The position numbers were made by a program, and so were the translations under genes. A DNA stretch of 64,000 bases from assembly GCF_055900595.2 (NCBI RefSeq), contig NZ_CM148325.1. One strand, written 5' to 3'. Under the pieces are notes generated by a model. That model saw nothing but the letters and a program-made list of their open reading frames with translations, was not told where the DNA came from and ran no database searches. Positions 60,532-61,013 of this stretch are shown here, one piece after another. Within the stretch, counting starts at the first letter, position 1, and every line of letters begins with the position of its first letter.

Positions 60532-60784
60532 GTAAAACCTCATCGTTTTGTTATATCCGCAGGAAGCGCGGCCATCATCCCGCCAGAGGCTGAAGATGTT
60601 AGTTACGACCGGGTAACCGAAAAAAAACCGGCACGCCCCGAACGTTGCCATGAAAGTTTCGTGCTAATTCGGCTTCCGTACCGGTTAACCCGATTCATCT
60701 AACAAATGAATGAATCGGCAATTTGCATTCCGTCGACTTATGATTTGCGACGGCAGAAAGATAACTTGTCATACAACTTTAAAA

Positions 60785-60800
60785 GGTGAGAGCCATCACA
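60785..60800. promoter_or_regulatory. Candidate CRP site in the divergent exuT / uxaCA control region
   Basis: gGTGA-gagcca-TCACA (one mismatch from TGTGA-N6-TCACA); hexuronate genes are known to be CRP-activated. Confidence 0.3.
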
Positions 60801-61013
60801 AATGTGGGAATATTTGTAGGGACATTACCTGATGACAGCGAGGCCAGTACTGGCGCGGCTTGCAGCGAGATTTACCACTTTGAGAGTAATTTTTTTAACT
60901 ACGTTTATTGATCTATCTCACGAAAATATCTTCGGACTCTGGAAATTGGTGTGATAACTTTGTCAGCATCGCACCATAAGCAAGCTAGCTCACTCGTTGA
61001 GAGGAAGACGAAA

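Follow-up and report, generated by a model that had tools for sequence, protein, structure and literature searches.

The exuT/uxaCA spacer and its gene starts

The window (the whole stretch of DNA analysed, 64 kb) belongs to an E. coli chromosome, and within it the divergently oriented exuT (minus strand) and uxaCA (plus strand) flank a spacer of 482 bp, bounded by the exuT start codon (complement of 60529-60531) and the uxaC ATG (61014-61016). A sequence-only reading had described this spacer as the longest intergenic region in the window, and both the claim and its coordinates proved exact, the next longest gaps between annotated features being those of garD/garP (374 bp) and agaS/nagA (350 bp). 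The following features delimit it:

60532..61013, no strand: the entire control region between exuT (432 aa, minus strand) and uxaC (plus strand)
60529..60542, minus strand: exuT start codon (60531..60529) and Shine-Dalgarno (SD) sequence UGAGG (60542..60538), with ACGAUGAGGUUUUACAUG invariant in 16 of 17 genera
61000..61016, plus strand: uxaC Shine-Dalgarno sequence (AGAGGAAG) and start codon, with GAGAGGAAGAC-GAnAATG conserved

Translation of uxaC from 61014 agrees with the annotated glucuronate isomerase, and tblastn alignments of ExuT begin in all genera at residue 1 of MRKIKGLRW, that is, of the 432-aa form. K-12 has a spacer of identical length, differing from that of the window strain by 4 SNPs and no indel, with the operators free of SNPs, and among 5426 complete E. 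coli genomes 5419 have the spacer. Across Enterobacterales the divergent exuT/uxaCA layout is kept, with spacers ranging from 368 to 860 bp.

Phylogenetic footprinting was carried out on 11 and then on 17 enterobacterial genera, the extra genera being obtained through ExuT cluster members and their contigs, and six more distant Enterobacterales, including Pantoea, Serratia, Pectobacterium, Rahnella and Acerihabitans, were also checked for operators. With 11 as with 17 genera, only the promoter, operator and CRP-family blocks named below are invariant amid diverged sequence.

Operators and CRP-family sites of the two promoters

Two modules, one for each of the divergent units, can be delineated in the spacer from conservation, and they comprise the following elements:

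60758..60763, minus strand: predicted exuT -10 hexamer TATCTT, giving a start near 60751; TATnnT kept in 17/17 genera
60763..60780, minus strand: ExuR/UxuR-type operator of exuT, AAAGTTGTATGACAAGTT, invariant in 17 genera and adjoining the CRP site
60785..60800, no strand: CRP site of exuT, centre 60792.5, reading GGTGAgagccaTCACA on the plus strand and TGTGAtggctcTCACC on the exuT strand
60907..60922, no strand: CRP/FNR hybrid site aTTGAtctatcTCACg, centre 60914.5, conserved in 16 genera
60942..60947, plus strand: candidate uxaC -10 GAAATT (TAAATT in Serratia and Acerihabitans), giving a putative start near 60954-60956
60943..60960, plus strand: ExuR/UxuR-type operator of uxaCA, AAATTGGTGTGATAACTT, containing AAATTGGT at 60943-60950

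ExuR is a repressor of the GntR/FadR family. The ExuR/UxuR operator is presumably a palindrome, imperfect and some 18 bp long, built around a T.GT-N3-AC.A core. The consensus of this operator is taken to be AAATTGGTATACCAATTT (Rodionov/Suvorova), against which the exuT operator, with its perfect TTGTatgACAA core, matches at 13/18 positions, the uxaC operator, with one half perfect and the other having AT for AC, likewise at 13/18, and the exuR operator (AAAGTGGTATAACAAATA) at 14/18. A comparative ExuR motif was reportedly worked out by Rodionov in 2000 and by Suvorova in 2011, and the exuT and uxaCA operators are said to have been mapped genetically by Mata-Gilsinger, Ritzenthaler et al. in 1983. 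The operator pattern AAAKTKGTRTRAYAA, to which the uxaC operator is an exact match, has exactly three matches in the window, upstream of exuR, exuT and uxaC, against 0.12 expected, a comparison that is partly circular since the pattern was derived from these sites. A first degenerate pattern was discarded as over-fitted to the uxaC site, the exuT operator having been missed by it. At exuR, the operator falls immediately downstream of +1 if the published constitutive promoter, TTTTCA-16-TAAACT, is taken as reference.

In the exuT promoter, positions 4-5 of the -10 hexamer and its downstream flank are variable while the rest is kept in all 17 genera, and the CRP site, with one mismatch to TGTGA-N6-TCACA, has both half-sites invariant in the same genera around a 6-bp spacer that varies. 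From the start predicted by the conserved TATnnT, this site would be centred at -41.5 and the operator would cover -29..-12. The hexamer C/TATAAG (60742..60737) was also considered as the exuT -10 and rejected, its TAnnnT being missing in several genera. Beyond the 17 genera, the exuT operator has at most two changes in all six of the more distant Enterobacterales; the uxaC operator, invariant as GAAATTGGTGTGATAACTTTG in the 17 genera, has one to three changes in five of these six. The exuT operator and CRP module and the uxaC operator thus both persist in Pantoea, Serratia, Pectobacterium and Rahnella, and in Acerihabitans the exuT module is matched and the uxaC operator unmatched.

The site on the uxaC side, compared with the FNR-type pattern TTGAT-N4-ATCAA, has a left half TTGAT that agrees at 5/5 positions and a right half cTCAc that agrees at 3/5 and is closer to the CRP half TCAC; in Mangrovibacter a near-consensus CRP site, TGTGAtccagaACACA, is found at the same position. 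The candidate uxaC -10 would place this CRP/FNR site at about -40/-41, in class II geometry.

A bare match to the CRP consensus carries little weight here, because TGTGA-N6-TCACA with at most two mismatches occurs 26 times in the window against 27 expected by chance. The two CRP-family sites can nevertheless be taken as more than chance, because they are invariant across the 17 genera (in summary the two operators and two CRP-family sites all are, the hybrid site itself being conserved in 16) and because binding data have been published. Genomic SELEX recovered exuT and uxaC among known CRP targets, the site not being resolved there (PMC3105977), and FNR ChIP-chip gave a uxaC/exuT site, TTTTCGTGAGTTAGATCAATAAAC, which is the hybrid site but for one spacer SNP (PMC1802558). 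The summit of FNR ChIP-seq falls at about 60927 in the window, 13 bp from the hybrid site, and its authors record distinct FNR and CRP sites, with no FNR-dependent expression change for exuT/uxaC in glucose medium (PMC3688515). Regulation of exuT and uxaCA by ExuR/UxuR is stated in the literature, with UxuR cross-regulating; since the gntP/uxuA spacer was all that genomic SELEX yielded with UxuR alone, the exuT and uxaCA operators are probably bound by ExuR or by a heterodimer. The sequence-only reading, which had placed here a divergent exuT/uxaCA control region with a CRP-like site and an ExuR/UxuR-like half-site AAATTGGT near 60945, was therefore right on each of these points and can be extended: there are two CRP-family sites (60785-60800 and 60907-60922), the latter already reported as an FNR target, the half-site makes up the left half of a full 18-bp operator, and a second full operator lies beside the CRP site of exuT.

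Several side observations concern the same elements. An extended -10 for uxaC, TGtGATAAC (60950-60958), would put the CRP/FNR site at -50.5, which is atypical and breaks class II geometry. Conservation cannot separate the uxaC -10 from the operator that overlaps it. The supplements of Kim 2012 make no mention of exuT and uxaC, and coordinates in the Cappable-seq supplements were unmatched. A metagenome scan with a 43-nt pattern of operator plus CRP site gave 0 matches, and one with a 16-mer gave 120 chance matches, none with the extended motif.

The predicted exuT leader and the GC-rich box

With exuT transcription starting near 60751, a 5' leader of about 220 nt would account for most of the length of the spacer. 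The elements recognized in it are given below in the order in which they would be transcribed, preceded by a conserved box that lies upstream of both promoters:

60843..60858, no strand: conserved GC-rich box GCCAgtacTGGCGCGG, halfway from one predicted start to the other, at about -100 from each
60730..60753, minus strand: P0, inverted repeat CCGTCG-N12-CGACGG spanning the predicted exuT start, followed by invariant GGAAUGCA (60729..60722)
60690..60718, minus strand: P1, leader hairpin CCGAUUCAU...AUGAAUCGG, the best supported helix
60628..60684, minus strand: P2, leader helix CCGGUACGGAAGCCGAA(U) with (G)UUCGGGGCGUGCCGG, enclosing a conserved UGGCAA (60650..60645) and a conserved GGA in GGUACGGA
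60610..60631, minus strand: P3, leader hairpin whose loop holds U8, seen as A8 on the plus strand at 60620-60627
60605..60614, minus strand: C-rich stretch, a candidate anti-SD (ACCCGGUCGU in E. coli, CCCCUCCCGUU in most genera) that can pair with the SD region AACGAUGAGG
60573..60598, minus strand: P4, leader hairpin CAUCUUC...GGGAUGAUG
60557..60571, minus strand: P5, leader hairpin CCGCG-cuucc-UGCGG, adjoining the SD upstream

Over the 17 genera, the folding z of the hairpins averages -2.1 to -3.1, compared with -0.6 and +0.4 in variable control segments upstream of the promoters, and 85% and 75% of cells are paired, compared with 23-46% when the partners are slid. P1 has a mean z of -3.1, with z < -1 in 17/17 genera, 90% pairing, double-sided changes in 3/6 pairs and G.U at one pair in 4 genera. 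P5 follows with a mean z of -2.4, 85% of cells paired and 4/6 pairs changed on both sides, and P2, with a mean z of -2.1, is 79% paired in its outer and 93% in its inner helix and has two pairs with compensatory changes; RNAalifold recovers P1, P2 and P5. The sequence of P4 is nearly unconserved, its hairpin being found in 15/17 genera (mean z = -2.2), and a fixed-column count gives 52-55% of cells paired owing to poor alignment. P3 has the form CCGGGA-loop-UCCCGG in most genera, with 79-80% pairing and 3-4 pairs changed on both sides, and is degenerate in E. coli (CCG-GU8-CGG). P2 and P3 are alternative pairings, since they overlap in the 3' arm of the former and the 5' arm of the latter. For the candidate anti-SD, 83-84% of cells are paired over the 17 genera, the pairing being weaker in E. 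coli itself, and the invariance of the SD side leaves hardly any covariation; pairings of the anti-SD and of the start codon, formed by invariant sequence, show none in their support. Double-sided changes exceed those in all 500 shuffles, a result obtained with 17 sequences whose kinship alone can beat column shuffles without any structure. Taken alone, the E. coli leader shows no unusual stability (z = -1.15 and -0.69). The architecture does not extend beyond core Enterobacteriaceae; a covariance model built for the leader's 3' half left the P4 alignment unimproved and gave nothing convincing outside this group (at most 22 bits).

One way in which such a leader might act is as a transcription attenuator, in which the P2 stem (8 + 6 bp, -22 kcal/mol) together with U8 (60627..60620) ends most transcripts at about 130 nt, freeing a short 5'-UTR RNA, while pairing of the shared CCGG with a downstream CGGUUAC in P3 allows read-through into exuT. 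In Escherichia, Salmonella and C. werkmanii the P2 stem does run directly into a U7-U8 run and is terminator-like (U8 in E. coli, E. albertii and C. werkmanii, U7 in Salmonella), the bases CCGG(GA) serve both P2 (3' arm) and P3 (5' arm), three mutually complementary CGGUAC-like copies are conserved and the pair counts support both P2 and P3. The U run is missing, however, in 12/17 genera, where the position is that of the P3 loop, so that it may be a mere U-rich loop; the apical part of P2 is large and branched, unlike typical intrinsic terminators, and P2 was not flagged by the terminator scan. Moreover, the very weak P3 of E. coli would imply constitutive termination, whereas exuT is described in the literature as readily inducible. 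We therefore consider attenuation of this kind improbable.

The inverted repeats proximal to exuT could also act in DNA, as sites for dimeric transcription factors or nucleoid proteins, rather than in RNA. P0 lends itself to this explanation, since both of its arms are conserved in sequence in 15/17 genera (mean z = -1.9, with one compensatory change) and it straddles the predicted +1, a start at about 60751 leaving its outer 2 bp upstream and untranscribed; P0 would form a hairpin at the 5' end of the RNA or else serve as a protein site in the DNA. The GC-rich box, a GCCA-N4-TGGC partial palindrome, lies outside any predicted transcript, and the overall counts of G.U and A.C (70 versus 53) are not significantly different, which leaves the strand of the structure unproven. 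On the other hand, in the 5' half of the leader these counts are 36 and 15, and the sequences of P1, P3, P4 and P5 vary freely while their pairing is kept, a signature of RNA structure and not of protein-recognised sequence. Hairpin lengths and loop sizes also differ among genera, a variation incompatible with binding by a dimer of fixed geometry, and action of the repeats at the DNA level appears quite unlikely.

It had also been suggested from the sequence that the spacer offers room for additional regulatory elements or a small RNA, and here the two halves of the suggestion part company. Additional elements were found, namely the conserved structured leader of exuT and the GC-rich box. For an independent sRNA gene with its own promoter and terminator there is no support, and we regard one as very unlikely: the spacer is long, holds conserved hairpins and contains at 60715-60744 one plus-strand match of sigma-70 type (TCGGCA-18-TATGAT), but a single promoter-like match is about the chance expectation of 0.9, the scan of the spacer for intrinsic terminators returned no compact one on either strand, and an Rfam search of it gave no match at E<=10. 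The K-12 RefSeq annotation, which includes a curated sRNA set, is empty over the spacer, and the conserved hairpins all lie between the predicted exuT promoter and SD, where they are explained as mRNA leader. Small ORFs in the spacer are likewise not conserved; those of 31 and 40 aa were rejected, the only conserved stops being those inside conserved binding sites.

That ExuT instead starts at the upstream ATG at 60651, giving 472 aa and a partly coding spacer conserved through protein constraint, is scarcely credible, for while the ORF is open from this ATG in E. coli and E. albertii and the version.2 of the K-12 ExuT accession fits a revised start, all 15 other genera checked have in-frame stops 0-26 codons upstream of MRKIKG, indels in the upstream segment of the 17-genus alignment have lengths that are not multiples of three, ExuT similarity sets in everywhere at the first residue of the 432-aa protein, the start at 60531 has a conserved SD before it, and PGAP and K-12 RefSeq agree on this start. 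As the upstream extension of exuT has in-frame stops in every genus outside Escherichia, the spacer is non-coding.

The GC-rich box itself fits none of the known site types that were considered. Its GCCA-N4-TGGCGCGG is kept in 15-17 of the 17 genera between unconserved flanks. A sigma-54 promoter was rejected for it, with a GG-to-GC spacing of 10 and not 12 and an unconserved TTGC, as was a third CRP site, with half-site matches of 5/10. The TGGCGCGG motif also occurs in the uxaB promoter, there inside a CRP-like site, and this is probably a coincidence (about 0.04 expected).

Probable shared control of exuT and uxaCA and the possible role of the leader

In our view, the spacer is very probably the shared control region of the divergent exu-regulon units exuT and uxaCA, with each promoter dependent on an activator and occluded by a repressor, and with a folded exuT leader. 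The transporter gene exuT and the uxaCA operon, encoding the isomerase and altronate dehydratase, would be served by separate promoters within one spacer. At exuT, the 18-bp ExuR operator, cross-recognised by UxuR, would lie over the promoter spacer and the -10, whereas at uxaCA a CRP-family site about 40 bp before the predicted start near 60955 would be combined with an operator over the -10 and +1. When hexuronate is absent, ExuR would block both promoters; ExuR would be released by an inducer formed from galacturonate or glucuronate, and cAMP-CRP, joined by FNR under anaerobic conditions, would recruit RNA polymerase. With the predicted starts, some 205 of the 482 bp would separate the two starts and the remainder would be leader, about 60 nt of it for uxaC and about 220 nt for exuT, the latter presumably folding as the conserved helices P1-P5 and perhaps P0.

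Control of exuT and uxaCA by ExuR, UxuR, CRP and FNR is already known and has been studied since about 1980, and as a control region the spacer holds nothing new. The genes, the organism and the 482-bp spacer are those of the E. coli K-12 exu regulon, as are the one operator per divergent unit plus one before exuR, the imperfect GntR/FadR-type palindrome with its T.GT-N3-AC.A core and the cross-regulation by UxuR; nothing differs in kind, the coordinates given here coming from conservation and not from footprints. With class II CRP/FNR promoters such as galP1 and melR, in which the site is centred near -41.5, the two modules share a 16-bp core of two-fold symmetry with conserved half-sites and a free spacer, and predicted distances to +1 of 41.5 bp (exuT) and about 40 bp (uxaC). 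Common to class II promoters and divergent CRP pairs is also the overlay of a sugar-specific repressor on the core promoter, and binding of CRP and FNR to this spacer has been published. In contrast with malE/malK and araC/araBAD, the exuT and uxaC promoters each have a CRP-family site of their own, about 122 bp apart, instead of a shared one, and the uxaC-side site differs from those of class II CRP/FNR promoters in being a hybrid, TTGAT/TCAC, that FNR occupies in vivo. The 17 genera yield a map of the two promoter modules at base resolution, usable for the design of hexuronate biosensors and for annotation of the locus.

Almost half of the spacer is predicted to be conserved folded exuT leader, and neither this leader nor the GC-rich box was found described in the literature that could be reached. 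The most likely effect of the leader would be on the stability of the mRNA or the initiation of translation, by governing how accessible the SD and start codon are. It has much in common with the long structured leaders by which enterobacterial transporter mRNAs govern translation or premature termination (such as those of corA, mgtA and chiP) and with SD-sequestering leaders, preceding as it does a membrane transporter gene over about 220 nt, with helices conserved in structure and not in sequence, a C-rich anti-SD stretch and alternative pairings that share a segment; it differs from them in having no Rfam family and in its confinement to core Enterobacteriaceae. To our knowledge, exuT has not been linked to a ligand, an sRNA, a leader peptide or Rho dependence.

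More tentatively, the leader (60532-60751) might be a hitherto undescribed cis-regulatory RNA found throughout Enterobacteriaceae, in which P2 and P3, sharing CCGG, and anti-SD and SD would form competing states, and these pairings, together with the conserved GGA of GGUACGGA and UGGCAA, would let a protein, sRNA or metabolite set exuT translation or premature termination. On the same doubtful footing, P2 and its U run could release a short 5'-UTR RNA in E. coli and Salmonella, and the GCCA-N4-TGGCGCGG box could be recognised by a further factor that influences both promoters. Should the leader prove regulatory, current regulon models would lack a post-transcriptional layer in the control of hexuronate uptake, a process relevant to gut colonisation. 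CsrA was considered as a direct binder of exuT and rejected, for although GGA motifs are present, exuT has no CsrA CLIP peak (PMC5694010). An indirect hint of post-transcriptional control is that in a csrA mutant the translation efficiency of exuT falls (logFC -0.61) with its RNA level unchanged; the half-life of exuT is 7.8 min (PMC5694010 Suppl. Data 2).

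Limits and conservation of the exuT/uxaCA spacer

The window is E. coli chromosome: segment 60400-61150 is a 100% match to strain 2013C-4282, and 5419 of 5426 complete genomes of the species contain it. Annotation places uxaA after uxaC and exuR downstream of exuT, and the two divergent genes are delimited as follows:

59233..60531, minus strand: exuT, hexuronate transporter of 432 aa (RefSeq annotation)
61014..62426, plus strand: uxaC (RefSeq annotation)
60529-60531, complement: exuT start codon, read from the sequence
61014-61016, plus strand: uxaC ATG, read from the sequence

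The spacer is therefore exactly 60532..61013, which confirms the 482 bp of the sequence-only reading and its statement that this is the longest spacer in the window, the runners-up among gaps between annotated features being garD/garP (374 bp) and agaS/nagA (350 bp). The K-12 MG1655 spacer is also 482 bp long, with no indel and four SNPs (60833, 60840, 60860 and 60916), and the curated RefSeq record of that strain has no feature annotated between exuT and uxaC.

The exuT frame has 40 further open codons upstream; read from the ATG at 60651, the product would be 472 aa long. This longer form was rejected: only E. coli and E. albertii lack a stop in the extension, all 15 other genera examined having in-frame stops 0-26 codons before MRKIKG; in every genus compared, ExuT similarity starts with residue 1 of the 432-aa form; and a conserved Shine-Dalgarno (SD) sequence precedes the start at 60531. 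The K-12 protein accession, at version.2, has the 432-aa start. No conserved small ORF was found in the spacer, in which the only shared stop codons are those within conserved binding sites, and the 482 bp are non-coding.

A UxaC scan with one genome per species gave 16 Enterobacterales loci with the same divergent arrangement, and eight more were obtained via ExuT cluster members (including Salmonella, Klebsiella, Cronobacter, Leclercia, Kosakonia, Lelliottia and Cedecea). The 17 core Enterobacteriaceae genera have spacers of 459-482 bp, the Cedecea group (Enterobacter sp. Ag1, Cedecea davisae and a third member) spacers of 368-375 bp, and more distant loci spacers of 398-860 bp; a long spacer is therefore conserved and no peculiarity of E. 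coli. In alignments of 11 and then 17 genera most of it has diverged freely, leaving a few invariant blocks:

60758-60802: block (a), AGATAACTTGTCATACAACTTTAAAAGGTGA-N6-TCACAAA
60843-60858: block (b), GCCA-N4-TGGCGCGG
60904-60926: block (c), TTTATTGATCTAaCTCACGAAAA
60941-60962: block (d), GAAATTGGTGTGATAACTTTG
exuT and uxaC ribosome-binding regions: block (e)

In Pantoea, Serratia, Pectobacterium, Rahnella and Acerihabitans block (a) can still be made out, as can block (d) in most of these cases.

Operators, CRP-family sites and predicted promoters

The exuT/uxaCA control region is already known biology; what the comparison supports is a sharper interpretation, with two promoter modules, two complete operators and two CRP-family sites:

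60780..60763, exuT strand (minus), within block (a): exuT operator, an 18-bp imperfect palindrome, AAAGTTGTATGACAAGTT
60943-60960, plus strand, block (d): uxaC operator, 18 bp, AAATTGGTGTGATAACTT
59150..59133, minus strand, short exuT-exuR spacer, before exuR: exuR operator, a third of the same kind, AAAGTGGTATAACAAATA
60800..60785, exuT strand, in block (a): exuT CRP site, TGTGAtggctcTCACC, one mismatch to consensus
60907-60922, block (c): uxaC-side CRP-family site, aTTGAtctatcTCACg, left half FNR-like and right half CRP-like
60763..60758, minus strand: predicted exuT -10, TATCTT
60942-60947, plus strand: candidate uxaC -10, GAAATT (TAAATT in Serratia and Acerihabitans)

The ExuR/UxuR-like half-site noticed by the sequence-only reading, AAATTGGT, turns out to be the left half of the complete uxaC operator. 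The exuT operator, which adjoins the CRP site, has the core TTGT-atg-ACAA, a GntR/FadR signature; the ExuR consensus used for comparison was AAATTGGTATACCAATTT. The pattern built from the three operators has no other match in 64 kb (0.12 expected), a count that shows specificity and, given its derivation from these sites, is not an independent test. ExuR and UxuR are published regulators of exuT and uxaCA. In SELEX, UxuR by itself picked out only the gntP/uxuA spacer, which makes ExuR or an ExuR-UxuR heterodimer the likely occupant of the sites here.

With up to two mismatches allowed, the CRP pattern occurs 26 times in the window, where 27 occurrences are expected by chance; on its own a consensus match has no value, and the case for the suspected CRP-like site, now two conserved sites, rests on conservation and published binding data. 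Genomic SELEX recovers exuT and uxaC among known CRP targets (PMC3105977), and the FNR ChIP-chip targets of Grainger et al. (PMC1802558) include 'uxaC/exuT', for which the site given is TTTTCGTGAGTTAGATCAATAAAC; this site is the reverse complement of 60903-60926 except for the strain SNP at 60916. The FNR ChIP-seq summit of Myers et al. (3,242,850 in old coordinates; PMC3688515) converts to about 60927, 13 bp from the centre of the hybrid site; these authors placed the exuT and uxaC operons in the CRP-activated class, with separate sites for FNR and CRP, and in glucose medium they observed no change that depended on FNR. Mangrovibacter has a near-consensus CRP site at the position of the hybrid. 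Position 60916, in the hybrid-site spacer, is T in this strain and A in K-12 and all 16 other genera.

In the exuT -10, T-A-T-n-n-T is constant in 17/17 genera, with variation at positions 4-5 and in the downstream flank, and a start near 60751 is predicted. This would place the CRP centre (60792.5) at -41.5 and the operator at -29..-12. The position -41.5 is that of a class II activator. An alternative -10, C/TATAAG (60742..60737), was discarded, lacking TAnnnT in several genera. For uxaC a start at 60954-60956 is predicted, with the CRP/FNR site at about -40/-41 and the operator at roughly -12..+6; if the extended -10 TGtGATAAC were used instead, the activator would sit at the atypical position -50.5. 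The two promoters would be back-to-back, activator-dependent and repressor-occluded, their predicted starts ~205 bp apart, with a uxaC leader of ~60 nt and an exuT leader of ~220 nt (45% of the spacer).

Several further observations concern these elements. In Rahnella inusitata (2141-3000 of its locus) the 860-bp spacer carries the operator and CRP module in two copies, GATAACTTGTCATACAGATTTAAAATTTGAatgacaTCACA and AATAACTTGTCATACCGATTTAAAGTTTGAgtgacaTCACA, which suggests a duplicated exuT promoter module. At 60990-61008 of the uxaC leader, conserved CACTCGTTGAGAGGAAGAC can form a small CUCA/UGAG hairpin overlapping the 5' edge of the SD, conserved as sequence, so that no covariation test is possible. 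The published constitutive exuR promoter, TTTTCA-16-TAAACT, immediately precedes the exuR operator. A strong terminator-like hairpin 3' of exuT (AAAGCCGCCTTCTCAGGCGGCTTTTT, in 59150-59215) probably explains a sub-threshold Rfam 'RNAI' match at 59176-59279 (30 bits against a gathering score of 47).

The predicted structured exuT leader

The sequence-only reading had also proposed room for additional elements or a small RNA. The first part is borne out by a conserved, structured exuT leader and a GC-rich box; for a small RNA the spacer has no Rfam match (E <= 10), no terminator in a terminator scan and no K-12 annotation, and a promoter scan gave one promoter-like site against 0.9 expected. The room in question is occupied by the inferred exuT leader, and premature termination at its U8 run would be the sole route to a small transcript.

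Between conserved anchors the leader sequence varies by genus, and hairpins recur at the same places. Helices P0-P5 are numbered from the predicted start toward the exuT SD; z-scores are against dinucleotide shuffles, as means over 17 genera:

60730-60753: P0, mean z -1.9
60690-60718: P1, mean z -3.1 (z < -1 in 17/17)
60628-60684: P2, mean z -2.1
60573-60598: P4, mean z -2.2
60557-60571: P5, mean z -2.4
Control 1, variable segment upstream of the promoters: mean z -0.6
Control 2, variable segment upstream of the promoters: mean z +0.4

Taken by itself, the E. coli leader has no unusual stability (z = -1.15 and -0.69). RNAalifold recovered P0, P1, P2 and P5. In the 5' half (P0-P2) 85% of cells are paired against 23-46% with slid partners, and its 13 double-sided changes were reached in 0/500 shuffles, a control that ignores phylogeny. 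With the same caveat, in the 3' half (P3, P4, P5 and the C-rich/SD helix) 74-75% of cells are paired (36-44% slid), and 13-15 pairs have double-sided changes, the 30-37 cells observed being matched by 0/500 shuffles. Compensatory changes are clearest in P1, P3 and P5; P4 is badly aligned, with 52-55% of cells paired. The G.U to A.C counts, 36:15 in the 5' half and 34:38 in the 3' half, only suggest that the structure lies on the exuT strand. With the start predicted at 60751 the outer pairs of P0 would fall outside the transcript; instead of forming an RNA hairpin, P0 may therefore be an inverted repeat of the DNA that spans +1.

The 17 core genera score 49-112 bits with a covariance model of the 3' half. 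No score exceeds 22 bits in the Cedecea group, Pantoea, Serratia or Pectobacterium, whose long exuT leaders have different hairpins. In the Cedecea group the leader is ~126 nt, with hairpins unlike those of the core genera, e.g., GCCGGGCAA-cgc-TTGCCCCGGC. Structured leaders thus seem to be a general feature, with an architecture specific to the lineage.

Leader features suggest that translation or elongation of exuT may be controlled. A C-rich stretch (CCCCUCCCGUU in most genera, ACCCGGUCGU in E. coli, 60614..60605) is able to pair with AACGAUGAGG, an invariant part of the SD region; the paired cells amount to 83-84%, without covariation because the SD side is constant. In most of the predicted folds, invariant GGAAUGCA (60729..60722) can pair with the region around the start codon. 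The P2 3' arm and P3 5' arm share CCGG, so that only one of P2 and P3 can form at a time. In Escherichia, Salmonella and C. werkmanii U7-U8 directly follows the P2 stem, giving a terminator-like look. An invariant GGA inside GGUACGGAUACC, which lies in a small local hairpin, resembles a CsrA site. Potts et al. (PMC5694010) found no CsrA crosslink on exuT; in their csrA mutant its ribosome occupancy (logFC -0.80) and translation efficiency (-0.61) dropped significantly with RNA unchanged (half-life 7.8 min), an indirect hint of post-transcriptional control. The most likely role for the leader would be the tuning of translation initiation and/or mRNA stability.

The GC-rich box

Nearly all of the 17 genera keep the box GCCAgtacTGGCGCGG (60843-60858, block (b)), whose central 4 bp are free to vary and whose flanks are unconserved; each predicted start has it ~100 bp upstream. 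None of the site types tried matches the box: as a sigma-54 promoter its spacing is wrong and the -12 element unconserved, and as a CRP site it scores 5/10. The box and the structured leader are each a modest, testable lead, and no description of either was found in the sources available. The K-12 SNP at 60860 lies two bases past the end of the box.

Upstream of K-12 uxaB (3682-3907 of locus L212) a CRP-like site, TGTGGCGCGGATCATG, contains the octamer TGGCGCGG of the box (~0.04 expected by chance); with the octamer lying there inside a CRP-like site, a motif common to both places was treated as coincidence. Adjacent operator-like sequences, TTAGTCATACAACCTG and GAATTGGTACGACAGGTT, occur in the same region near the uxaB start codon.
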